Below are positions 35,753-49,149 of a stretch of 64,000 bases of DNA, in pieces. This stretch comes from Dehalococcoidia bacterium (lineage in GTDB: Bacteria; Chloroflexota; Dehalococcoidia; Lucifugimonadales; UBA3495), in NCBI GenBank assembly GCA_965201145.1, contig CBDAVT010000002.1, positions 841,084 to 905,083 of the forward strand, written 5' to 3'. The notes below the pieces were generated by a model. The model had not been told where the DNA came from, did not search any database, and worked only from the letters and a program-made list of their open reading frames with translations. Made by a program: the position numbers and the translations under genes. Within the stretch, counting starts at the first letter, position 1. Each line of letters begins with the position of its first letter.

Positions 35753-37633
35753 ATGTCCTATCATTGGTTGACCATACCCAAGTCAGTACTCATCGGTTCC
35801 CTGGTTCTGGCCCTGACCCTGCTGGCAGCCTGCGGCTCCGCCGCCCCCGAGATTGTTGAGAAGGAGGTACTTAAAGAAGTAACTGTAGAAGTACCCAAAG
35901 TGGTGGAAGTAATCAAGGAAGTTGAAGTGCCGGTGGAGGTAGAAAAGCAGGTCCTCCAGGAAGTGGAAGTGGTCAAGGAGGTAGAGGTACTGAAGCAAAT
36001 CCCCAAGGAAACGGTGGTTGAAAAGATGGTCATTGCCACCCCCACTCCGATTCCGGCAGTGATGGATGCGGTGGAAACTAAGGTGGATCGGGTGATTTAC
36101 GCTTTGGGGGAAGTGCAGGAAACCAACCGGCACTGGACGGTCAGCCGTCCTTCCTACTATCAGTTCGACCCTTACGGTGAAACGCTGGTGGGTTTGGACC
36201 CGCACAGCAACGAACGCATTCCCCGCTTGGCCAAGAGTTGGGAATGGAGCGAGGACGGGAGAGAATGGACTTTCCACCTGGTTGAGGGAGTACCTTTCCA
36301 CTTTGGCTTTGGCGAGTTTACGGCCCACGATGCCGTGGCGGCCCACCATCGGACTCTGGGCGAAGATTCCCAGGCCAGTGCAGCTTCCTTTTTCCGGGGA
36401 GCCACCGCCGAAGCTTTGGATGACTACACGGTCAAATACACTTTCGACGGCCTGTCCCTGGACACGCCGGCAATCCTCTCCCGTGGTTTCGGCGGCGGTG
36501 AAGTTCTGATGCTGAGCCAGAAGCAGTTCGAGTCCGAGGGTCTCGAAGGCTTTGATGCCCGGCCGGCCGGCACCGGTTCTTATATGTACGGTGGCCGAGA
36601 AATTGGACAGGGGCTGTGGTTCGAAAAGGCGCCCGGTACCCATTGGCGCGGTGAGAATCCCGACTTTCAGGAAGTAGAGCTGCGCTGGGTGCGGGAAGAC
36701 CTGACGCGTCTGGCGGCTTTGCTCACCGGCGAAATCCACGTCGCTGCCCTGTCCCGGGAACTGCAGCTGGAAGCCGGACGGCGAGGGATGAAGCCGGCGG
36801 CGGCCGGTGTGCCGACCAACTACCTGTCCCTGTTCCTGGGCGGGATGTATTTCTCCGAAGGCGACCCCGATTATGACCCCTCAGTGCCCTGGGCTCATCC
36901 CGCTACGGGTAAACTGATCCGGCAGGCCATGAACCAGGCCATTGACCGGCAGGAGATGCTGCAGCACGTTCTCAAAGGCGATGGCGAGTTGATGTATAAC
37001 ACGGCCTACCACCAGGTCCTGCGGGGCTGGAATCCCCAATGGGAAACGGACTGGGAAAGTCTGTACGGGTATGACCCGGAAGCAGCGAAGAATTTGATGG
37101 CCCAGGCTGGTTACGGCCCGGATAACCCGATGCCCTTTACCTCTTACAACTACTTCTCGGCGGATGAGCCGGAAACGGCAGTGATGTTGGAGGCATTGAT
37201 TAATTTCTGGGAACCCATCGGCATCGACGTAACCCTGCTGGACAGCGAGTGGGGAACCGTCCGTAAAGAGTATCGCGCCAAGGGCGATTTCATCAAAAAG
37301 GGCGGTTGGGGCAACGTAATCACCATGCGGTCGCTGACCACCCGGCTGCGCGTCTGGAGCTTTGCCGCCACCGGAAATGGCGGAGGATACGAAACCGACC
37401 TCCAGGACCGGAACTATCTGGAATATATCGCCCTGGAAAACGTGGATGAAACTGCCATTAACCGGCTGATTCAGGAAATCGGGGACGACCGCTACTATAA
37501 TTTTGCGGATATTCCCTTTTTCTGGTTCCGCCTGACGGTAATGTTCAACCCGGAAGTGGTGGAAAGCTGGACCTTCCCGGGCACCGCTTCTTCGAAAACC
37601 AGTCACTGGGACCTGCTGCGGGCCGCGCAGTGA
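35753..37633 (+). CDS. ABC transporter substrate-binding lipoprotein, family 5, with E/V/K-repeat linker (paralog A)
   Basis: Lipobox LLAAC-GS, then EIVEKEVLKEVTVEVPKVVEVIKEVEVPVEVEKQVLQEVEVVKEVEVLKQIPKE, then a family-5 SBP fold. Highly similar to 37910..39787. Confidence 0.85.
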   Translation: MSYHWLTIPKSVLIGSLVLALTLLAACGSAAPEIVEKEVLKEVTVEVPKVVEVIKEVEVPVEVEKQVLQEVEVVKEVEVLKQIPKETVVEKMVIATPTPIPAVMDAVETKVDRVIYALGEVQETNRHWTVSRPSYYQFDPYGETLVGLDPHSNERIPRLAKSWEWSEDGREWTFHLVEGVPFHFGFGEFTAHDAVAAHHRTLGEDSQASAASFFRGATAEALDDYTVKYTFDGLSLDTPAILSRGFGGGEVLMLSQKQFESEGLEGFDARPAGTGSYMYGGREIGQGLWFEKAPGTHWRGENPDFQEVELRWVREDLTRLAALLTGEIHVAALSRELQLEAGRRGMKPAAAGVPTNYLSLFLGGMYFSEGDPDYDPSVPWAHPATGKLIRQAMNQAIDRQEMLQHVLKGDGELMYNTAYHQVLRGWNPQWETDWESLYGYDPEAAKNLMAQAGYGPDNPMPFTSYNYFSADEPETAVMLEALINFWEPIGIDVTLLDSEWGTVRKEYRAKGDFIKKGGWGNVITMRSLTTRLRVWSFAATGNGGGYETDLQDRNYLEYIALENVDETAINRLIQEIGDDRYYNFADIPFFWFRLTVMFNPEVVESWTFPGTASSKTSHWDLLRAAQ

Positions 37634-37909: not shown

Positions 37910-39787
37910 ATGACATTCCGGTTGCATAAATCTCGCGCACTTTTGATTGGATCATTGATTCTTCTGCTATCTTTTGTGGTTGCCTGTGGCAGCGCCGCTC
38001 CTGAGATCGTGGAAAGGGAGGTAGTCCGGGAAGTAGAAGTACCCGTCGAGGTAGAGAAAGAGGTAGTCCGGGAGGTAGAAGTACCCGTCGAGGTAGAGAA
38101 GGAAGTAGTCAAGGAAGTCGAGGTAATTAAGGAAGTCGAGGTACTCAAGGAAGTACCTAAGGAAACCGTCATCGAAAAGACGGTGATCGCCACCCCTACG
38201 CCGATCCCGGCGATGATGGAAGCCGTCGAGGCCAAGGTGGAGCGGGTCATTTACGCTCTGGGCGAAGTACAGGAAACCAACCGGCACTGGACGGTTGGGC
38301 GTCCTTCTTACTACCAGTTCGACCCCTACTCCGAAACGCTAATCGGCTTGGACGCAAATACCAACGAGCGGATTCCGCGCCTGGCCAAGCGTTGGGAATC
38401 CACTCCTGACGGCCGGGTTTGGACTTTCCACTTGGAAGAGGGAGTCCCCTTCCACTTTGGTCACGGAGATTTCACGTCCGCCGATGTGGTAGCCTCCTTC
38501 GACCGCATTTTGGGCGAAGATTCTCAAGTCTCTGCCGTGTCATTCTTTAATGGCGCCACCTACCAGGCGTTGGATGACCACACTGTAGAGCTGGCCTTCC
38601 CGCAGATTTCTTTGGATACCCCCTCCATAGTGTCCCGCGGCTTTGGCGGCGGCGAAATAATGATGCTGAGCAAGAATCAGTTTGACACTGAGGGACTAGA
38701 GGGCTTCGACAATCGCCCGGCCGGTACCGGTTCTTACCAGTATGGCGGCAAGACCCTGGGCCAGAGTATCTGGTTTGAGAAGGCGCCCGGCCCCCACTGG
38801 CGCGGCGAAAACCCGGACTTCCAGGAAGTAGAGTTGCGCTGGGTGCGGGAAGACCTGACCCGCCTGGCCGCCCTGCTGACTGGTGAAATCCACGTCGCCG
38901 CCCTGTCCCGGGAGTTGCAGTTGGAAGCCGGACGGCGGGGAATGCAGCCAGCCGCGGCTGGTGTGCCGACCAACTACCTGACCATGTTCCTGGGCGGACA
39001 GTATTACGGCGCTTATCAGGATGATTATGACCCCAATGTTCCCTGGGCCAGCCCGGAACATGGTAAGAATATCCGTCAGGCGATGAACAAGGCTATCAAC
39101 CGCCAGGAAATGCTGGATCACGTCCTGAAGGGCGACGGCGAGTTGATGTTGCTGACTCAGTATCACCCGGTACTGGGAACCTGGAATGACCAGTGGGAAG
39201 AGGACTGGGAAGAGCTTTATGGCTACGACCAGGAAGCGGCCAAGAACTTGATGGCCCAGGCCGGCTTCACTCCTGACAATCCCATGGCCTTCACCTCCTA
39301 CAACTACTTCTCGGCGGATGAACCGGAAACGGCAGTTATGCTGGAAGCTCTGATTAACTATTGGGAGCCGATCGGCATCGACGTAACCCTGCTGGACAGC
39401 GAATGGGGTACCGTCCGCAAGAACTACCGGGAACGGACCGACTTCATCAAGAAAGGCGGTTGGGGCAACGTAATCACCATGCGCTCCCTGACCAACCGAT
39501 TGCGGAGCTGGAGCTCGGCGCAGGGAGTAGGTGGAGCCGGATACTATTCCGACATCATCGAGCGCAACTATAAGGCTTATCAGGCGCTGGATACGGTGGA
39601 CTACGACCGAATCAACGAGCTGTTGCTGGAAGTAGGTAACGACAAGTATTACAACTTTGCCGACATCCCCTTCTTCTGGTTCAGTCTGACGGTGATGTAC
39701 AACCCCGAAGTAGTAGAGAGCTGGACTTTCCCCGGAACCGCCGGCTCCAAGACCAGCCATTGGAACTTGCTGCGGGCCGCGCAGTAA
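37910..39787 (+). CDS. ABC transporter substrate-binding lipoprotein, family 5, with E/V/K-repeat linker (paralog B)
   Basis: Lipobox VVAC-GS. The linker contains a duplicated VREVEVPVEVEKEV. Collinear with paralog A over the whole length. Confidence 0.85.
   Translation: MTFRLHKSRALLIGSLILLLSFVVACGSAAPEIVEREVVREVEVPVEVEKEVVREVEVPVEVEKEVVKEVEVIKEVEVLKEVPKETVIEKTVIATPTPIPAMMEAVEAKVERVIYALGEVQETNRHWTVGRPSYYQFDPYSETLIGLDANTNERIPRLAKRWESTPDGRVWTFHLEEGVPFHFGHGDFTSADVVASFDRILGEDSQVSAVSFFNGATYQALDDHTVELAFPQISLDTPSIVSRGFGGGEIMMLSKNQFDTEGLEGFDNRPAGTGSYQYGGKTLGQSIWFEKAPGPHWRGENPDFQEVELRWVREDLTRLAALLTGEIHVAALSRELQLEAGRRGMQPAAAGVPTNYLTMFLGGQYYGAYQDDYDPNVPWASPEHGKNIRQAMNKAINRQEMLDHVLKGDGELMLLTQYHPVLGTWNDQWEEDWEELYGYDQEAAKNLMAQAGFTPDNPMAFTSYNYFSADEPETAVMLEALINYWEPIGIDVTLLDSEWGTVRKNYRERTDFIKKGGWGNVITMRSLTNRLRSWSSAQGVGGAGYYSDIIERNYKAYQALDTVDYDRINELLLEVGNDKYYNFADIPFFWFSLTVMYNPEVVESWTFPGTAGSKTSHWNLLRAAQ
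38033..38116 (+). repeat. 2 x 42-bp tandem duplication in the SBP linker
   Basis: GTCCGGGAAGTAGAAGTACCCGTCGAGGTAGAGAAAGAGGTA is repeated immediately with 2 substitutions. Each unit encodes VREVEVPVEVEKEV. Confidence 0.85.
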
Positions 39788-40547: not shown

Positions 40548-41762
40548 ATGGCAACGCAGTCGCAGGAAATTCGAAATATGCGGCTAATTTCGCACCATGA
40601 CCTGAACGGTTACGGCAACATCGGCGAGGGTGTCCATTTGCACCGAACCAGGGACGGTCGCCGGGTTCTCTACATGGCCCATGAAAGCGCCCCCAAGGAC
40701 ATCACCAGCGTCGATGTGACCGACATTGCCAACCCCAGACTGCTGGCCCAGACAGAGCTGGCCTACGGGCACCTGCGCTCTAATTCTCTGTCCATTGTGG
40801 ATGACACCATGCTGGTGGCTTACCAGTCCCTGAACCCCGGCCAGCCGGGTACCGGCATGGGAGTGTACGATATTGGCAATCCTGAGGAGCCGCGGCAGAT
40901 CAGCTTTATGGACCTGGGCGGCGAGTATTCCCGGGGCTGCCACTGCCTGTGGTGGGTGGATGGTGAATATGCGCACCTGTCCACCGGCGCTGCTGACTTC
41001 CAGCCCCGCAATCAGAAAGACGACCAGTTTTATATGATTGTAGATGTGAAGGACCCCACCAGGCCCCAAGAGGTTGGGCGTTGGTGGCTTCCCGGGACCC
41101 GGGAAGGCGACGCCGAGCCGATGCCGGCCCGCCATCCCCAGTTTGACGCCGGTCACCGCTTGCATAACGGCAACGTCTATCCGGAGCGTCCCGATCGGGC
41201 CTACTGCGCCTATATGGACTCGGGGGTAGCCATCCTGAATATCGAGGACAAGGCTAATCCCCAGGTGGTCAGCCAGATTAACTATGCGCCACCCTTTCCC
41301 GGGTTCACCCACACGGTCTTGCCCCTCTTTAATCGGGACTTGATGGTGGTAACTCAGGAGGCGGTTCGGCTGAATGGCGAAGACTACCCCAAGCTGATGT
41401 GGATGATGGATATACGGGATGAAACCAATCCCATTATCATCAGTACTTTCCCGATGCCGGATACGGAAGACTTTTTCAACCGGCCCGGCCGCTTTGGCGC
41501 GCACAACGTGTATGAAAACCAGCCCGGCCCCACCTGCTTCTTCTCCGATACTTTGGTGTTCGCCACCCTGTTCAACGCCGGAATTCGGGTGTACGACACC
41601 AGCGACCCCTTCCGGCCCGAAGAGGTGGCCTACTTTGTGCCGGAAATTCCCGAGGGAGCTCCCTCCAACGGAATTAATGACGTTTACGTGGACGAAAACG
41701 GCATTATGTACGTGGTGGACCGATTGAAGGGCGGCCTCTATATCCTCGAACTTACCCTTTAG
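40548..41762 (+). CDS. Beta-propeller-like protein (LVIVD-repeat-like)
   Basis: Recurrent hydrophobic strand motifs (SLSIVDDTMLVAY, YMIVDVKD, GVAILNIED, GIMYVVDRLKGGLYILE). GGAGGGAAG RBS. Family assignment is tentative. Confidence 0.45.
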   Translation: MATQSQEIRNMRLISHHDLNGYGNIGEGVHLHRTRDGRRVLYMAHESAPKDITSVDVTDIANPRLLAQTELAYGHLRSNSLSIVDDTMLVAYQSLNPGQPGTGMGVYDIGNPEEPRQISFMDLGGEYSRGCHCLWWVDGEYAHLSTGAADFQPRNQKDDQFYMIVDVKDPTRPQEVGRWWLPGTREGDAEPMPARHPQFDAGHRLHNGNVYPERPDRAYCAYMDSGVAILNIEDKANPQVVSQINYAPPFPGFTHTVLPLFNRDLMVVTQEAVRLNGEDYPKLMWMMDIRDETNPIIISTFPMPDTEDFFNRPGRFGAHNVYENQPGPTCFFSDTLVFATLFNAGIRVYDTSDPFRPEEVAYFVPEIPEGAPSNGINDVYVDENGIMYVVDRLKGGLYILELTL

Positions 41763-42507: not shown

Positions 42508-44183
42508 CCTCCCAGGTCTATTACCGCAAATGGCGCCCCGGTTGCTTTGCTGACTTGGTGGGGCAGGAGCACGTGGCTACCACCTTGCGTCAAGCCATTA
42601 AGCAGGGGCGGGAATCTCATTCGTATCTGTTTTGCGGTCCGCGGGGTACCGGCAAGACTACCACTGCCCGCATCGTAGCCAAGGCGGTTAACTGCCTGGA
42701 ACCTTTGGATGGCGACCCTTGCAACCGCTGCGCTGTCTGCGTCTCCTTTAACGAAGAGCGGTTCCTGGATACCATTGAAATGGACGCCGCCAGCAATCGA
42801 GGTATCGAGGACATTCGAGACATCCGGGACAAGGTGAACTTTGCGCCGGTTGAGGGCCGCCGCAAGGTATATATCATCGACGAGGCCCATATGCTTACCG
42901 ATCAGGCCTCTAATGCCTTCCTCAAAACCTTGGAAGAGCCGCCGGCCCACGTCATTTTTATTCTGTGCACTACGGAAGCCAACCGGATTTTACCCACCAT
43001 AGTCTCCCGTTGCCAGCGTTTTGACTTTAGACGGCTGCCCGCCGAGCGAATCTACCAGAGACTGGCGGAGATTACCGAGGGAGAGGGCGTTTCGGTGGCG
43101 CCGGAAGCCCTGCGACTGGTAGCCCGCTACGCTGCCGGCAGTCTGCGGGATGCGGAGAATCTACTGGAGCAGTTGGTAGTATCTTTCGGCGACGGCGTAA
43201 CGCTGGTCCAGGTTGAGGAACTGCTGGGGCTTGGGCACGGCGACCGCTGGCTGGATTTAGTCAAATATCTGCTGACCGGCAACACTACGGCCTGCCTGGA
43301 GGTCGTTAATCAGGCAGCCTGGGATGGGGCGGACCTGCGTCAGATGCACCGGCAGGCCCTGGAACTGCTGCGGGGGGCAATGCTTCTGGAATGGAGCGCT
43401 GCCGATACCCTGGAATTTCCCGAGCACGTGACCGGCCAATTGCGGGAACTGGTAGGCAACTTGCCTAATACACGCATAGTAAAGGCCCTGCGTATCTGGG
43501 GCGAGGTCAATATGCGCTATGACGCTCCCTCGACGCTGCCCCTGGAATTGGCGATAGTGGAAATCTGTAACGAAGACCTGGCGCCGCCGGCGGAAGCCGC
43601 TCCGGCTCCAGCCACTCCCCGGACAGCTCCCGCCCCGCAGAATCACCGCACGGGAGGAAGTCCGTCCCCGGCCTCCGGGCCGCCCCATTCCAACGGCGCC
43701 CCGGCCCAACCTGAAGTCGCCTCGCGTCCGGCAGAACGTCCCCGCACCGCTCCAGCGCGCCCCCAGCCAGCAGGCCAGGTAGCCGAAACTTCCGGGAGTT
43801 CCAGCGACGGCGAGGGTATATCCGACAAGTGGCTTGCCGCCGTGAAAGCGTTAAGTCGCTGTACGGGAAAGAAATACAATCTCGGCGCGCTGCTGCGGGA
43901 CTGCAAGGCCAACACCATAACCCTGGAAAGTGATACACTGTTGATACCCTTCGTGCATCGCCCCAATTTGGAACGGATGCAGGAAGAAATGGAAGACTCC
44001 GGCTCACGGCAAATGATTGCCGAGGCGGTAACCCGGCACTTCGGTACGCAGTACGATTTCAAGATATTTCTTGCGGGACAAGATGAGGAAGGCTCTCAAC
44101 CCGGTCGGCCCTTCCAGCACAGTCCGTTGGTGCGTACCGCGATGAACATGGGAGCCCGGATCGTGGAGGATACAATCGAATGA
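42504..44183 (+). CDS. dnaX: DNA polymerase III subunit gamma/tau
   Basis: YRKWRP..., GPRGTGKTTTARI, zinc module CNRCAVC, IIDEAHML, SRCQRFDF. The C-terminus is P/A-rich. Confidence 0.95.
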   Translation: MTSQVYYRKWRPGCFADLVGQEHVATTLRQAIKQGRESHSYLFCGPRGTGKTTTARIVAKAVNCLEPLDGDPCNRCAVCVSFNEERFLDTIEMDAASNRGIEDIRDIRDKVNFAPVEGRRKVYIIDEAHMLTDQASNAFLKTLEEPPAHVIFILCTTEANRILPTIVSRCQRFDFRRLPAERIYQRLAEITEGEGVSVAPEALRLVARYAAGSLRDAENLLEQLVVSFGDGVTLVQVEELLGLGHGDRWLDLVKYLLTGNTTACLEVVNQAAWDGADLRQMHRQALELLRGAMLLEWSAADTLEFPEHVTGQLRELVGNLPNTRIVKALRIWGEVNMRYDAPSTLPLELAIVEICNEDLAPPAEAAPAPATPRTAPAPQNHRTGGSPSPASGPPHSNGAPAQPEVASRPAERPRTAPARPQPAGQVAETSGSSSDGEGISDKWLAAVKALSRCTGKKYNLGALLRDCKANTITLESDTLLIPFVHRPNLERMQEEMEDSGSRQMIAEAVTRHFGTQYDFKIFLAGQDEEGSQPGRPFQHSPLVRTAMNMGARIVEDTIE

Positions 44184-44479
44184 ACCGGAACATGATGCGT
44201 CAGGCCCAGCGAATGCAGGCGCAGTTGCAAAAAATTCAGGAAGAATTGGAGACCATGACCGTTGAAGGCAGCGCCGGCGGCGGTGTGGTCAAAGTCGTGA
44301 TGACGGGTAAACAAGTGGTGGAGTCGGTTATTATTGAACCGGAAGCGATGGAGGATGTGGAACTGCTGCAGGACCTGGTGGCGGCCGCCTTCAACGATGC
44401 CTCGGACAAGACCCAGCAGCTGGCCGCCAGCAAAATGGGCGCCATCACCGGCGGCATGAATATCCCCGGTCTGACTTAA
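44180..44479 (+). CDS. ybaB: YbaB/EbfC nucleoid-associated protein
   Basis: MNRNMMRQAQRMQAQLQKIQEELE...GGGVVKVVMTGKQ. ATGA overlap with dnaX. Confidence 0.9.
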   Translation: MNRNMMRQAQRMQAQLQKIQEELETMTVEGSAGGGVVKVVMTGKQVVESVIIEPEAMEDVELLQDLVAAAFNDASDKTQQLAASKMGAITGGMNIPGLT

Positions 44480-44625
44480 TCGTCCCAGCGCAGCCGCGCC
44501 GGGCAGCTAACTGAGTTGGGGCATTTCTCCGGTTTAAGGTACTGCTTTGATTGTTGTGGCCCTGCGGTCAAGGACTGCCTTCCGTACTTCTATGTTGGGA
44601 GTCCGGACTGTTTCACAGAGGGACT

Positions 44626-45723
44626 ATGGTAGATCGCTATCAACAACTGCAACTGGATATTGAAATTGAGGATAGCGCTGCGGATGATGCGGCGGTTGCC
44701 CTGGTCAAGTACGATATTTCCAGCTATGGAATAGACTTCGACGTGGAAGGCTTGTACCGGCGGCTCAAGCGGGCAGAGATTTTTGTACCATCGTTCCAGC
44801 GCAGCTACGTTTGGAGCCTGGAGGAAGCCTCTCGATTTATTGAAAGTCTGTTGTTGGGTTTGCCAGTTCCTGGCATATTTCTGGCGAGAGATGAAGTATC
44901 GGGCAAGCTGCTGGTAATCGACGGCCAGCAGCGCCTTAAATCCTTGATGTTCTTTCTTGACGGTGACTTCAACTCTGACAACAGCGGCAAAGCCCGGCAA
45001 TTTAAGCTGAAGGATGTCCAGGGAGAATTTGCGGGCAAAACTTACGCTACCCTGCCGGAAAAGAACCGAATCGACCTGGACAACGCCATTATCCACGCCA
45101 CCGTTGTCAAGCAGGATCACCCGCAGGGCGATGACACCAGTATTTACCATATCTCTGAGCGGTTGAATTCCGGAGGAAGGCAGCTGTACCCTCAGGAAAT
45201 GCGGAGCGCCTTGTATCACGGGACGCTGATTGACACTATCCAGGACTTGAACCGGCACGAAAGCTGGCGCAGTATATACGGCCAATCCAGCGCCAGGTTA
45301 AGGGATCAAGAGCTTATTCTCAGATTCCTGGGGTTGTATTACTCTGAGGCAAGGTATTCCCGTCCTCTTAAAGAGTTTCTTACCAAATTTCTTATCCGAC
45401 ACCGCAATCCTGCACCGGAGGTGTTGGACTCGTACAGCAATACCTTTTGCCGGGTCGCCGACTTGTGGTGGGAAGCGTTGGGTAACAAAGCTTTCCGCCC
45501 CTCGCAAAATTTTAACGCCGCCGTTTTCGATTCAATGTTTGTAGCGCTGGCTAGAAGAGTCAACCAGGCTGATGTTCCGGCTCCGGAAAAATTAGCTCGA
45601 GCCTATCGGGAAGTTTGGGATGATGCAGACTACCGGAGCGCTATAGTAACCCGATCGACATCTGAAGAATCTTCGGTGCAAACCCGTCTGGACAAGGCGA
45701 CGAGTCGTATTGCAGAACTGTAA
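44626..45723 (+). CDS. DUF262 (ParB/GmrSD N-terminal-like) protein, module 2 (intact)
   Basis: FVPSFQRSYVWSLEEASRFIESLLLGLPVPGIFLA...LVIDGQQRLKSL...ERLNSGGRQLYPQEMRSAL. The C-terminal ~200 aa is helical with no His-Me/HNH (DUF1524-type) motif visible. Confidence 0.85.
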   Translation: MVDRYQQLQLDIEIEDSAADDAAVALVKYDISSYGIDFDVEGLYRRLKRAEIFVPSFQRSYVWSLEEASRFIESLLLGLPVPGIFLARDEVSGKLLVIDGQQRLKSLMFFLDGDFNSDNSGKARQFKLKDVQGEFAGKTYATLPEKNRIDLDNAIIHATVVKQDHPQGDDTSIYHISERLNSGGRQLYPQEMRSALYHGTLIDTIQDLNRHESWRSIYGQSSARLRDQELILRFLGLYYSEARYSRPLKEFLTKFLIRHRNPAPEVLDSYSNTFCRVADLWWEALGNKAFRPSQNFNAAVFDSMFVALARRVNQADVPAPEKLARAYREVWDDADYRSAIVTRSTSEESSVQTRLDKATSRIAEL

Positions 45724-46203
45724 ATGAGGAACGTTCGCCTGGTCGGTCAATATAATACCATCCAGTCCCTTATTGAGCGAACCGGAACAGCCACCGGAGA
45801 AAATATAGAATTACAGGGGCATTGGGGACGTTATCTTTGCATATTGGCCGCGGGACTGCTGGAAAATTCAATCCGGGAAATTTACCAGGAATTCGTCCAA
45901 AACTCCGCCAGTCCTCCGGTAGCCAGCTTTGCATCATCCCGGTTGCGCGGTATCAATAACCCGAAGTCAGAGAGATTTGTTCAAGTCGCTTCCTCCTTTA
46001 GCCAGGAATGGGGACAGTCTCTGGCAGAGTTCCTGAATGCCAGCAACGGGGAGCGCAAGGACGCCATCGACTCAATAATAAATAACCGCAACCAAATTGC
46101 CCACGGCAGAAACACCAATATTTTCGTAGTTCGAGTGAAAGGCTATCTGGACCGAGTGGTGGAAGTCATTGACTTTATTGAATCCCAGTGCAGCGAGCGC
46201 TGA
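45724..46203 (+). CDS. HEPN-like protein with Rx4H motif (module 2 partner)
   Basis: The ATG directly abuts the DUF262 TAA. NNRNQIAHG motif (R-x4-H). 159-aa helical protein with the same layout as 27094..27588. Confidence 0.7.
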   Translation: MRNVRLVGQYNTIQSLIERTGTATGENIELQGHWGRYLCILAAGLLENSIREIYQEFVQNSASPPVASFASSRLRGINNPKSERFVQVASSFSQEWGQSLAEFLNASNGERKDAIDSIINNRNQIAHGRNTNIFVVRVKGYLDRVVEVIDFIESQCSER

Positions 46204-46233
46204 CTACCCGTCGGCCCAGCCCGAGAAGGTGCC

Positions 46234-46851
46234 ATGACCCTGGAACATTTGCCATCGGCCGCCCCTTCCCTGGCGCGGCTAATTCAGGAACTTAACAAGC
46301 TGCCCGGCATCGGCCCCAAGAGCGCCCAGCGGTTGGCTTACTTCATTATCCGCTTGCCCGATGCCGAGGCTTACGACCTGGCCGACGCCATCAGCGCCGT
46401 GAAGCGGAGCATTATGTTTTGCGGCCAATGCCAGAACTTGACCGACTCCAACCCGTGCGCCGTCTGCGCCAATAGCCAGCGCAACCGGGAGCAAATTTGC
46501 GTGGTTGAAGAGCCGTTGGACGTACTGGCCCTGGAGCGTACCCATTGCTACCGGGGCTTGTACCACGTCCTGCACGGCGTTCTGTCGCCCCTCAACGGGG
46601 TGGGGCCGGAGCAAATCAAGCTGCGCGAGCTTTTCGCTCGGGTGTCCGGCGGCGAGGTCAAGGAATTGGTCATCGCCACTAATCCGACGCTGGAGGGCGA
46701 GGCTACGGCGATGTACATTTCCCGCCACTTGGCCGGAAGCGATGTAAAGGTAACTCACCTGGCCCGGGGGCTGCCGGTGGGCGGTTCCCTGGAATACACC
46801 GACGAACTGACCTTGAGCCGCGCTTTTCAGGGTCGGCAGGAAATGGAGTAA
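46234..46851 (+). CDS. recR: Recombination protein RecR
   Basis: LIQELNKLPGIGPKSAQRLA (HhH), C4 finger CGQCQNLTDSNPCAVC, Toprim region. Confidence 0.95.
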   Translation: MTLEHLPSAAPSLARLIQELNKLPGIGPKSAQRLAYFIIRLPDAEAYDLADAISAVKRSIMFCGQCQNLTDSNPCAVCANSQRNREQICVVEEPLDVLALERTHCYRGLYHVLHGVLSPLNGVGPEQIKLRELFARVSGGEVKELVIATNPTLEGEATAMYISRHLAGSDVKVTHLARGLPVGGSLEYTDELTLSRAFQGRQEME

Positions 46852-46952: not shown

Positions 46953-47732
46953 ATGTCTGCACCCAGAATGTATCGCGCCGAGGCGCTGACGCTGAAGAAC
47001 TCTCCCTATGGTGAGGCCGACCTGCTGGTTACCGCCTACAGCCGGGAGTGGGGCAAGATACGCGCCCTGGCCAAGGGCGCCCGCCGCTCCACCGCCAAGC
47101 TGGTAGGCCACCTGGAGCCTTTGACCGTAACCCGTCTGGCCCTGACCCGGGGGCGCAGCCTGGATTTGATCAGTCAGGCCGAAACTCTGGAAAACTTTAC
47201 TGCGCTCAAGACCAACCTGACCGCCTTGACCCGAGGACTCCAGGTCGCCGAGCTGGTGGACGGGTTCGGTTCCGAAGCCAGCCCCAATGAACCCCTTTAC
47301 GTCCTGGCCCTGACCACCCTGGATGCCATTGGACGATCCCCGGATGACGAACTCCCGGCCTGGCATTTCCTCCTGCATTTGCTGTCCGTTTCGGGATTGA
47401 TGCCCGAACTGCAAAACTGCGTCGAGTGCCGCCGGCCGATCGTGCCGGGACAGCACCGCTACAGCGCAGCCGGGGGCGGGGTTTTCTGCCTGGGCTGTAC
47501 CCCAGACCAGGTAGGGCTGCGTCCATTGTCGCTGGGGGCAATCAAAGTGCTGCGGCTGCTGGCCCGCAGTCAGGCAGCGGAGCTGCCGGTCTTGAACCTG
47601 ACGCCAGCCCTTGCCCTGGAACTCAAGACCATCCTTACCGGAACGGTTCAATACTGGCTGGACCGGGAAATCCGCACCACCTCTTTCCTGAATCAACTGT
47701 CCCGCGCTACAGCGCCGGGGCGAAAAGGGTAG
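46953..47732 (+). CDS. recO: DNA repair protein RecO
   Basis: OB-fold N-terminus (AEALTLKNSPYGEADLLVTAYSREWGKIRALAKGARR) and C-terminal zinc motif CVECRRP...FCLGC. Confidence 0.9.
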   Translation: MSAPRMYRAEALTLKNSPYGEADLLVTAYSREWGKIRALAKGARRSTAKLVGHLEPLTVTRLALTRGRSLDLISQAETLENFTALKTNLTALTRGLQVAELVDGFGSEASPNEPLYVLALTTLDAIGRSPDDELPAWHFLLHLLSVSGLMPELQNCVECRRPIVPGQHRYSAAGGGVFCLGCTPDQVGLRPLSLGAIKVLRLLARSQAAELPVLNLTPALALELKTILTGTVQYWLDREIRTTSFLNQLSRATAPGRKG

Positions 47733-47884
47733 CTGCTAACGAGCCCGTATACTGAAGTTCGGCGCCCGGAGTGTCTGGCAGCTTTTGCAAAGCCGACCGG
47801 GTTGCGCTACACTAGATTGATACCGGTCAATAGGGAAATTTCCCAGAAATGAGCCACTTAGCGGACGGGAAGTAAGGTAAACAA

Positions 47885-48331
47885 GTGTCCACCTATCGCT
47901 TGAGAGTTGGCGAACAGTGGTACACCGTGGACGTGGGGGACGTCAGTCGTTCTCCGGTGGAGGTAAACGTCGACGGGCAGACTTACTACGTGGAAGTCGA
48001 CGCGGCTGAGGCAGCTCCGGCGCAGCCCCGGACCCGGCGCGGCCGTCGCCCACCCAGCCGGGTTGCGCCGCCGACCTTGCCCCGGGTCGGTGGAGCGGTG
48101 CCGGCCTTTGACCCGTCAGACAAGGTGCTGCGCGCTCCTATGCCGGGGCGGGTGATAGCCATCCGCGTCCGGCCCGGCGACCGGGTAGCTGCCGGCGATG
48201 AAGTCTGCGTGGTGGAAGCTATGAAGATGGAACAGAGCATCCGCGCCGCCCGGGATGGTTTGGTCAAGGAAATCTACGTGCGGCCCATGGATTCGGTAGG
48301 AGCTAATGACGCCCTGATCGAATTGGAATGA
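47885..48331 (+). CDS. Biotinyl/lipoyl-domain carrier protein
   Basis: C-terminal biotinyl domain with VVEAMKMEQSI (EAMKM biotinylation motif). GTG start. Confidence 0.8.
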   Translation: MSTYRLRVGEQWYTVDVGDVSRSPVEVNVDGQTYYVEVDAAEAAPAQPRTRRGRRPPSRVAPPTLPRVGGAVPAFDPSDKVLRAPMPGRVIAIRVRPGDRVAAGDEVCVVEAMKMEQSIRAARDGLVKEIYVRPMDSVGANDALIELE

Positions 48332-49149
48332 TGGCTATGTCCATAGAGTTGCAGCTGATTATCCTGTCCCTGACCCTGACTATCGGCTCGGCCATAGCCC
48401 AGGTAGTAGCCAAGCTGTGGGCCCACAAGGTTCTCAACGAGCTCAGGTCCCAACTGGAGGAAGCCCGCCGGCGCCATCGGAACCTCCTGACCGAATACTA
48501 TCTGCGCCAGCATTTTCTCTGCCGGGAACTGAGTCTGCCGCTGCCGGCCCGGCCGGCTTCCACCATTCCTCCTCAACCCGGCGACGCGGATGAAGCGTCC
48601 CGACCCCTTTGGCGAAGGCTGCTCCGCCGCAAGCCCAAAACCACCCTGACCCAAGGTTCCACCGGCTCCGCCCGGTTGATAGTTGGGCGGCACGCTTCCA
48701 GTGTAGCCTTCAGTATCATTTGGAAGCTCACTTCGGCCAGCATTTTGCGGCTGGTCCGGCCTTTGGGGATGCGTGCGGTCCAGTCGCTGGCGCCCCGGAT
48801 ACTGCAGCCCCTGGCGGCCCGGTCCGTACACATTGCGCCCCGGCTGTTCGCCCTGGGCGGCGGCGCCGGTTCTGCCGGCGGCTCCCTGGCGGCCTCCACG
48901 GCGGCGCGGGCTGCCGTCAGCACCATCTCCATAGTTGGCATTATCATCGGGCCGGCTCTGGCTGCCTGGACCGTAATCAGCGAACTCCGCAAGATTAAGA
49001 AGGCTCGCCGGAATTTGAAGGTTATGCTGGAAGAACAGAATCTGGAACTGGCCGCTTTCCAGTCCCGTAATCGAGAGCTGGAAGGCGAGTATGCCCGGGC
49101 CGCGAAATCCTGCACCGGGGCCAGAGAATTGGTGATCAGCGGCGTTTAG
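48328..49149 (+). CDS. Hypothetical membrane/coiled-coil protein
   Basis: ATGA overlap with the biotinyl-domain gene. Has an N-terminal TM, a second hydrophobic segment and a C-terminal coiled coil. No family recognised. Confidence 0.5.
   Translation: MMAMSIELQLIILSLTLTIGSAIAQVVAKLWAHKVLNELRSQLEEARRRHRNLLTEYYLRQHFLCRELSLPLPARPASTIPPQPGDADEASRPLWRRLLRRKPKTTLTQGSTGSARLIVGRHASSVAFSIIWKLTSASILRLVRPLGMRAVQSLAPRILQPLAARSVHIAPRLFALGGGAGSAGGSLAASTAARAAVSTISIVGIIIGPALAAWTVISELRKIKKARRNLKVMLEEQNLELAAFQSRNRELEGEYARAAKSCTGARELVISGV

Follow-up and report, generated by a model that had tools for sequence, protein, structure and literature searches.

PD-T4-2 is a two-gene anti-phage system that was found by functional selection in Escherichia coli, where it was listed as "DUF262, HEPN" (Table S1) and validated against phage T4 (Vassallo 2022, PMC9519451). 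Its deletion from the native ECOR65 host allowed T4 to form plaques again, and the HHpred tables of the same study assign its A protein to PF03235 and its B protein to PF18735, then PF18737 (PMC9519451); the ECOR65 locus is QOYX01000002:338334-339873 (RCO39066.1). A linkage of these families had already been listed in the HEPN survey of 2013 (its Table 1), as "Ribo L-PSP-HEPN … operon with ParB" (PMC3710099). Here, we analyze a window of 64,000 nucleotides (the whole stretch of DNA that was studied; positions 841,084 to 905,083 of the forward strand of contig CBDAVT010000002.1, assembly GCA_965201145.1) from a Dehalococcoidia bacterium of the Chloroflexota, in which a DUF262 gene followed by a HEPN gene lies between ybaB and recR. 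This pair is a distant member of the PD-T4-2 family, so that the system itself is known and only its location is unusual.

Two other groups of described systems share parts of this build. The role of the DGQQR motif of DUF262 domains in nucleoside triphosphate (NTP) binding comes from studies of GmrSD, BrxU, SspE, and HEC-06 (PMC10952713; bioRxiv 10.1101/2024.01.29.577857), and the combination of a DUF262 domain with a helical domain is treated as a DNA-binding sensor in the SspE, GmrSD, and Menshen literature (PMC12065111). Menshen itself consists of NsnA, the ABC ATPase NsnB, and the inPIN-effector NsnC (PMC12065111).

A preliminary description of the locus, made from the DNA letters, had read the pair as a split GmrSD-like sensor whose DNase had been replaced by a separately encoded HEPN effector. 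The absence of the DNase domain stands, and the comparison with GmrSD proved a looser description than PD-T4-2. The same description knew of no experimental characterization of such systems, which is contradicted by the validation of PD-T4-2 against T4, and the linkage of some HEPN families to ParB/DUF262 genes that it mentions is found in the 2013 table cited above. In our reading, to which we give a probability of about 0.66, the two genes form a PD-T4-2-family anti-phage module that is carried as accessory cargo in the ybaB-recR slot of a Dehalococcoidia chromosome and acts by the mechanism proposed in the Discussion.

Results

Both genes of the module are intact and lie on the same strand between ybaB, which ends at 44479, and recR, which starts at 46234. 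Gene 1 (44626..45723, +) encodes the A component, a DUF262/ParB-like protein of 365 amino acids, and gene 2 (45724..46203, +) encodes the B component, a stand-alone RiboL-PSP-type HEPN protein of 159 amino acids. A TTG at 44551 would be an alternative start for gene 1, upstream of the ATG at 44626; the ATG is favored because the close homologs are all ~365 amino acids long and share the same N-terminus. The two genes abut in a TAAATG junction, the ATG of gene 2 beginning on the base after the TAA of gene 1 (raw sequence ctgTAAATGagg at 45718-45729). The G+C content is 0.49-0.53 over 44500-46150 against 0.58-0.64 on either side, and G+C and third-position G+C (GC3) are 0.51/0.58 and 0.50/0.56 for the two module genes against 0.57-0.63/0.67-0.78 for dnaX, ybaB, recR, and recO. 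The open reading frame (ORF) map and the composition thereby confirm the coordinates, the shared strand, and the lower G+C that had been read by eye, and the raw sequence does the same for the abutting start of gene 2.

The profile searches upheld the domain assignments that had been proposed for both proteins. The only Pfam match in gene 1 was GmrSD_N (DUF262, PF03235; E = 5.1e-27, 95.7 bits for a cutoff of 33.2, residues 47-197). The DUF262 motifs picked out in the preliminary description (FQRSYVW, IDGQQR, and ERLNSGG) are present, and their core residues are invariant in an alignment of 36 homologs: F57, Q58, R59, and W63 in motif I (FQRSYVW, of the form QRxxxW; 44794..44814, +), D99-G-Q-Q-R103 in motif II (DGQQR, the predicted NTP phosphate-binding center; 44920..44934, +), and R179, N181, and G184 in motif III (RLNSGG, FxxxN-type; 45160..45177, +). 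In the C-terminal part, the invariant positions of this alignment are E229, R233, N297, and F301-D-S303. The claim that the C-terminal half carries no His-Me or HNH motif also held, as this half had no Pfam match and no such conserved motif among its invariant columns. Across the whole of gene 1, Pfam matched no DUF1524/PF07510-type His-Me nuclease, and no conserved D/E-H-x-x-P motif was found.

The AlphaFold2 model of gene 1 (predicted local distance difference test, pLDDT, 85; predicted template-modeling score, pTM, 0.78) shows an α/β N-terminal domain followed by an all-helical C-terminal domain. Foldseek placed SspE (6jiv) and BrxU (7p9k) at the top of its matches, followed by the CTP-binding proteins ParB, Noc, and KorB. 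Gene 1 is thus a nuclease-free protein made of a ParB/Srx-fold DUF262 NTP-binding domain (residues ~28-200) and a helical NsnA-C/SspE-M "ParBDB"-type domain (~200-365). PADLOC gave two full-length matches to it, NsnA (2.3e-62) and PD-T4-2_A (2.8e-51, profile positions 39-359 of 363). The NsnA model (PDLC03877) scored above PD-T4-2_A (PDLC04027) on all the HEPN-partnered DUF262 proteins tested (the window, L087-L090, and L250, where L numbers denote the compared loci); since every E. coli PD-T4-2-type A protein tested also scores higher on NsnA, the NsnA match of gene 1 is a cross-family one.

Gene 2 matched Pfam HEPN_RiboL-PSP (PF18735; 4e-18, 66.4 bits for a cutoff of 28.4), with HEPN_MAE_28990 (PF18737) ranking second. 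Its R-x4-H motif, RNQIAHG (46087..46107, +), lies within the NNRNQIAHG noted earlier and is predicted to be catalytic; its R122, H127, and G128 are invariant in 43 homologs with identities down to 31%. The motif is also in register with the RNxFAHG of the E. coli partners. The AlphaFold2 model of gene 2 has six helices (pLDDT 94, pTM 0.87). Its PDB neighbors with the best template-modeling (TM) scores are the HEPN toxins or domains 7bxo, 7ae8, 7ae9, 4nqf, and 2hsb (TM 0.42-0.54, all at E > 0.5), and its best-TM neighbor in BFVD is a phage "MAE_28990-like HEPN" protein (TM 0.63, also at E > 0.5). Comparison of the gene 2 profile with PDB sequences returned nothing relevant, and PADLOC and NCBIfam gave no meaningful match for this protein. 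From its sequence, we consider gene 2 a predicted ribonuclease (RNase) effector.

At E ≤ 1e-3, a search of 1.84 billion clusters at 50% identity found 1,909 representatives of the HEPN family to which gene 2 belongs, nearly all of them stand-alone proteins of ~150-165 amino acids. In public gene calls, the HEPN gene of related loci is shortened to 143 or 120 amino acids or omitted (L001:6099-6578, L004:6099-6578, L256, and L254:4114-4620). The full-length HEPN ORF, with its ATG right after the DUF262 stop, is present at every inspected locus (L001, L004, and L254), and the short database calls are start-codon artifacts.

Both proteins were then compared with E. coli pairs matching the PADLOC PD-T4-2 models. 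One of these, L250, is a chromosomal pair that belongs to a P2-like prophage, where the genes for the CI repressor and the integrase flank it; it scores 1.8e-55 with PD-T4-2_A and 1.4e-8 with PD-T4-2_B. The A protein of L250 shares 33% identity with gene 1 over 348 amino acids (E = 2e-58), and the family profile of gene 2 aligned with the B protein in hhalign at 98.2% probability (E = 3e-14, 151 columns) with the R-x4-H motifs in register. The B protein of E. coli pLR-27_3 was matched as well (hhalign 97.6%, E = 4e-12; BLASTP E = 7e-12). For the HEPN partner encoded on an E. coli IncX1 plasmid, BLASTP found no alignment with gene 2, and hhalign gave a probability of only 79%; the A protein of this plasmid has 365 amino acids, and its B gene starts on the base after the A stop, as in the window. 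That both proteins are homologous over their full length to PD-T4-2-type pairs of E. coli supports the candidate defense module that the preliminary description had put forward.

The pairing was examined in a gene 1 alignment scan of metagenome and IMG/VR contigs, which recovered 159 loci at 22-63% identity. A locus was counted as assessable if 250 residues or more were aligned and 600 nt or more of DNA followed downstream (n = 125), and 111 of these loci (89%) carried an abutting downstream ORF that matched an iterated RiboL-PSP HEPN model. At gene 1 identities of at least 35%, the proportion was 55 of 58 loci, so that the pairing is almost obligate and the conserved neighborhood on which the defense reading had been staked is found. 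Of the 39 downstream ORFs with a weak score or none in the first-pass model, 23 were separately called as PF18735 by Pfam. The typical junction keeps the A→B order with a distance of −4 to +12 nt, and the alternative partners found downstream were AAA_15/AAA_21 ATPases (Menshen-like), a methylase, and a PLD nuclease. The pair was counted on 79 IMG/VR viral contigs in the same scan. By tblastn, relatives of gene 1 were found on 111 plasmids from several phyla, including those of Escherichia, Salmonella, Enterococcus, Acinetobacter, and Rhodococcus, and in four plasmids (E. coli IncX1, a 3.9-kb E. coli plasmid, Kocuria, and Hymenobacter) an annotated HEPN gene directly follows the DUF262 gene.

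We then turned to the chromosomal site. By its RecR, the window belongs to an uncultured Dehalococcoidia lineage, whose best GTDB representative is OZ244136.1 (92% RecR identity), and a tree of concatenated DnaX, YbaB, RecR, and RecO (902 columns, seven genomes) supported the clade with 100% bootstrap. The module occupies the ybaB-recR slot in the window, L001/L002, L004, L005, and also L256, which gives at least five other related Dehalococcoidia contigs (four distinct module lineages) with the module at this position. It is absent from three of the seven clade genomes, including the closest GTDB representative (RecR 92%). Among these, L007, the sister of L001 (95% flank identity, 100% bootstrap), has an empty slot with a 98-bp junction; L009, the sister of L004 (89% flank identity, 99% bootstrap), has an empty slot with a 143-bp junction; and the slot of L008 holds an unrelated ORF of 129 amino acids with no Pfam match (L008:3573-3962).

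Because the closely related L007 and L009 have empty ybaB-recR junctions, the module is an insertion, which agrees with the earlier proposal of an insertion into the dnaX-ybaB-recR operon. The presence of the same genes in relatives had been named beforehand as a finding that would speak against that proposal; with at least five contigs carrying them, the insertion can no longer be called recent, and the accessory defense module stands. When filled and empty junctions were aligned, no insertion scars, direct repeats, or att-like sites were seen, the intergenic DNA being too diverged.

In more distant Dehalococcoidia, the same place is taken by different cargo: a TPR protein with a PIN/VapC-like protein (L011:2811-4004), fragments resembling a decayed PIN gene (L016:3280-4001), a CHAD+HTH protein (L065:2648-3847), and a DUF3795 protein (L021:1073-1396). 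The G+C of this alternative cargo is below that of its surroundings in all cases (L011, L016, L008, and L021) but L065. The ybaB-recR slot is a permissive cargo site. A defense-specific hotspot was considered for this junction and rejected, as CHAD and DUF3795 proteins are among the other cargo.

Another variable slot is found two genes further downstream, between recO and a biotin-lipoyl gene, where relatives carry a toxin-antitoxin (TA)-like pair of DUF4258 and DUF2283 genes (L001:8144-8673, L002:8144-8673, and L004:8074-8603; DUF2283 only at L256:6424-6669). This pair is absent from the window (equivalent positions 47733-47884) and from L005.

The history of the insertion was followed in the carriers. 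In the window, L001, L004, and L005, the four slot carriers examined, all ORFs are intact, and the HEPN ATG directly follows the stop of the A gene. The module tree (((L001,L005),window),L004) has 96-100% bootstrap and agrees with the flank tree, in favor of vertical descent; the chance of such agreement for a rooted four-taxon tree is 1 in 15. Purifying selection on the module is indicated by its nonsynonymous divergence (dN) of 0.16-0.28, at which silent sites are already close to saturation. Since synonymous divergence (dS) calculated by NG86 was saturated for the module in nearly all pairs, with dN/dS (ω) computable for only two comparisons (~0.08), differences at 4-fold degenerate sites were used instead, and these amount to 0.52-0.76 in the module against 0.30-0.55 in the flanks of the same genome pairs. 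GC3 is likewise lower in the module (0.51-0.59) than in the flanks (0.67-0.84) in every carrier (the window, L001, L004, L005, and L256).

Module copies at 59-66% identity sit at other chromosomal sites: after a tRNA synthetase gene (L251), after a Lactamase_B gene (L252 and L253), beside Cas3 (L255), and between aminotransferase and LplA genes (L006 and L254). In a 16-taxon tree of the A protein, these off-slot copies interleave with the slot copies, and the monophyly of the slot copies received 2% bootstrap. Simple vertical descent does not fit, because the GC3 of the module is low and its silent divergence exceeds that of the flanks. One ancient gain followed by three losses was first favored on the congruent four-taxon trees and was downgraded in view of the non-monophyly of the slot copies, the low GC3, and the excess of silent divergence. 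Relatives may have exchanged the module by homologous recombination across the conserved flanks or gained it repeatedly, or they may have retained it and lost it several times.

Two of the off-slot loci deserve a separate description. In L255 (L255:1-7098), a 64%-identical pair lies between a gene for an Lhr-like helicase and RNase_T/Cas3 genes, beside a type I CRISPR-Cas locus, and no other defense-island-like context was seen among the close relatives. In L251 (L251:4102-4600), the 66%-identical copy after the Asn/Asp-tRNA synthetase gene keeps its DUF262 gene intact, and codon 11 of its HEPN gene is an in-frame stop; this stop could reflect toxin-first decay or a long-read assembly error.

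Around the module, dnaX (Pfam-confirmed DnaX) ends at 44183, and ybaB (44180..44479, +; PF02575, 4.5e-31), which encodes a YbaB/EbfC nucleoid-associated protein 88-95% identical to YbaB of the relatives L001-L009, forms the upstream edge of the slot. The spacer between ybaB and gene 1 (44480..44625, +) measures 146 bp and contains a Shine-Dalgarno-like GAGGG at 44618-44622, 3 nt 5′ of the gene 1 ATG; its length varies among carrier genomes (82-146 bp), and it is not conserved. Between gene 2 and recR, the spacer (46204..46233, +) has 30 bp and no terminator-like site, and it measures 4-32 bp in the other carriers. The downstream edge is recR (46234..46851, +), with Toprim_4, RecR_HhH, RecR_ZnF, and RecR_C matches and a product that is 92% identical to the RecR of L007, a genome in which the site is empty; recO (46953-47732) is a Pfam-confirmed RecO. 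A promoter and terminator scan of the spacers gave signals at the shuffle background with a σ70 consensus, which may not fit Chloroflexota.

Three further features of the window were recorded. At 40548-41762 (+), an ORF of 404 amino acids had no Pfam match at 1e-5, and relatives carry at this position, upstream of ybeY, an amidohydrolase gene on the opposite strand. Another ORF, of 273 amino acids (48328-49149, +), also had no Pfam match at 1e-5, and relatives have an unannotated gene of 262 amino acids there. Tandem paralogous genes for family-5 solute-binding proteins (SBP_bac_5; 626 and 625 amino acids) occupy 35753-37633 and 37910-39787.

Discussion

The mechanism that we propose for the module draws on the better-known DUF262 and HEPN systems. 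The A protein would bind DNA via its DUF262 and helical domains and recognize invading, possibly modified, phage DNA, with NTP binding or hydrolysis serving as a conformational switch, as in GmrSD, BrxU, and SspE. In the uninfected cell, A would keep its HEPN partner inactive in a complex, and coupled expression of the two is suggested by the abutting genes. Once phage DNA is sensed, A might release or activate a HEPN dimer, whose composite R-x4-H site would cleave RNA (tRNA, mRNA, or rRNA). Translation would then stop, and phage replication would abort as the infected cell ceases to grow or dies.

Several points weigh against this reading. A literature search for the mechanism of PD-T4-2 found no paper, and the text describing the system does not state whether it acts by abortive infection or by direct immunity (PMC9519451); it is by analogy that we infer RNase activity, DNA sensing, and the formation of an A-B complex. 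Homology to PD-T4-2 was judged with other E. coli loci matching the PADLOC models and not with the ECOR65 archetype, and PADLOC PD-T4-2_B (PDLC04028) gave no match to gene 2 at E ≤ 1. As this model also missed the IncX1 partner outright and detected the other E. coli partners at only 4.4e-4 and 1.4e-8, we attribute the miss to a narrow model and a fast-evolving small protein. Foldseek found no significant HEPN match for gene 2 (best E of 0.55 in PDB and 0.62 in BFVD), and its HEPN membership consequently rests mainly on the profile match and the invariant motif. There were also no defense genes, integrase, transposase, or other mobile-element genes within ~9 kb of the module, and its position inside a housekeeping operon in several species is atypical for defense cargo.

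HEPN toxins are classic components of TA systems, HepT-MntA being an example, and a tight two-gene operon with abutting stop and start would also suit a selfish addiction cassette, in which the HEPN protein would be the toxin and the DUF262 protein the antitoxin, kept because its loss is costly and bringing no meaningful anti-phage benefit. The best-TM PDB neighbors of gene 2, 7bxo and 7ae8, are HEPN TA toxins, a PIN/VapC-like gene fills the same slot in L011, the TA-like DUF4258/DUF2283 pair lies two genes downstream in relatives, and the stop codon in the HEPN gene of L251 is what would be expected if the toxin gene decays first. However, the module was cleanly lost or never gained in the sister genomes L007 and L009, with flanks at 95% and 89%, which is unexpected under strong addiction, and the homologous E. 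coli system guards its native host against T4. The A protein moreover keeps invariant NTP-binding and putative DNA-binding motifs that go far beyond the needs of a simple antitoxin. TA behavior and abortive-infection defense can coexist, and we find an addiction cassette devoid of defense unlikely. The anti-phage function could instead be exerted on DNA, as a type IV restriction-like activity in which the DUF262 protein or an atypical HEPN-like partner cuts or nicks modified phage DNA, with neither RNA cleavage nor abortive infection. DUF262 is the sensor of the DNA nucleases GmrSD, BrxU, and SspE, the last two of which are the top structural matches of gene 1; the 2013 HEPN survey calls ParB a DNase domain of restriction-modification-like systems (PMC3710099), and T4, the phage used to select the E. 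coli system, has DNA with glucosylated hydroxymethylcytosine. Neither protein, however, carries a DUF1524/His-Me, PD-(D/E)xK, or other DNase domain or motif, the characterized HEPN R-x4-H enzymes in the literature examined are RNases, and the invariance of R-x4-H implies that it is a catalytic element, so that DNA cleavage seems very unlikely to us.

It could also be argued that the pair has become part of the operon, with a ParB-like and a HEPN protein that assume a housekeeping role in replication or recombination beside DnaX, YbaB, RecR, and RecO. The slot is filled in six or more contigs, from five distinct module lineages, between flanks that differ at dS 0.7-1.5, every ORF is intact in the four carriers examined at the slot, where dN is much lower than dS, co-transcription is likely because there is no terminator before recR, and YbaB and ParB-fold proteins are both nucleoid-associated. 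Such a role fits poorly with the lack of the module in three of the seven clade genomes, with related pairs at unrelated sites, on plasmids, in prophages, and on viral contigs, with G+C and GC3 values that have not converged on those of the host, and with off-slot copies that interleave with slot copies in the tree; we regard it as highly improbable. A different idea concerns the site more than the genes. The ybaB-recR junction of this clade might be an exchangeable cargo slot, in which defense or TA cassettes are swapped without an integrase by homologous recombination via the flanks, and where the module would be read through with recR and recO, its expression and retention being coupled to those of replication and repair genes. 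This would explain why the slot is filled, empty, or differently filled, why GC3 has not converged, why the silent divergence of the module is deeper than that of the flanks, and why off-slot copies interleave, and we put it forward as a speculation that is rather doubtful. We thus retain a PD-T4-2-family defense module, carried as accessory cargo, as our explanation of the locus.

The module opens no new mechanism. It extends to Chloroflexota a family that is validated and mechanistically unexplored, and the DUF262→HEPN pairing is a unit that is widespread and strongly conserved. It also exposes a gap in annotation, where the PADLOC PD-T4-2_B model is too narrow and NsnA outscores PD-T4-2_A on genuine PD-T4-2-type proteins; because of this behavior of the two models, distant PD-T4-2 members are likely missed by PADLOC or half-labeled as Menshen. 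Finally, a defense cassette can sit without a mobile-element signature in a core replication and repair operon, where defense-island searches do not look.

Among the known systems, those of the GmrSD/BrxU/SspE type share with the module an N-terminal DUF262 NTP-binding domain with DGQQR and a helical middle domain, and SspE and BrxU are the closest structural neighbors of the gene 1 model. Unlike them, the module has no fused DUF1524 His-Me nuclease, and its effector is separately encoded and is a predicted RNase, not a DNase. With the HEPN toxins of abortive-infection and TA systems (HepT-MntA, AbiD/AbiF, DARNA/PD-T7-3, and ApeA), the module has in common a small helical HEPN protein with R-x4-H, and RNA cleavage with growth arrest would be the expected outcome; HepT-type toxins are the best-TM PDB neighbors of gene 2, none of them at a significant score. 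The HEPN protein of the module nevertheless belongs to another family (RiboL-PSP) and is not fused to a sensor domain, and its partner is a DUF262 ParB-like protein, with no MNT nucleotidyltransferase gene at the locus.

Menshen is approached from the side of the A protein, which has its best PADLOC score with NsnA (2.3e-62, full length), shows the same two-domain build of ParB-DUF262 and ParBDB, and resembles "type I" NsnA in lacking an additional sensor domain at the N-terminus. The genes that follow differ, since gene 1 is succeeded by the HEPN gene and then recR; the NsnB ATPase (AAA_15/DUF3696) is absent, with dnaX as the sole ATPase gene of the operon, and instead of NsnC with its inactive-PIN N-terminal domain, the partner is a stand-alone, all-helical HEPN protein. 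Membership in Menshen was rejected, as both NsnB and NsnC are absent.

The module departs from PD-T4-2 in its divergence (~33% identity to the E. coli versions for A and ~22% for B), in its Chloroflexota host, and in its position in a dnaX-ybaB-recR operon and not in a prophage, a plasmid, or a defense island. It agrees with PD-T4-2 in its A→B layout, with a nuclease-free DUF262 protein encoded upstream of a small RiboL-PSP-type HEPN protein on one strand, in matching the same Pfam families with the same rank (PF03235; PF18735 then PF18737), in the span of its two ORFs (1,578 bp against 1,540 bp in ECOR65), and in the full-length match of its A protein to PD-T4-2_A. Judged by sequence, the nearest relative of the A protein is NsnA of Menshen, and the closest framing of the pair is PD-T4-2.

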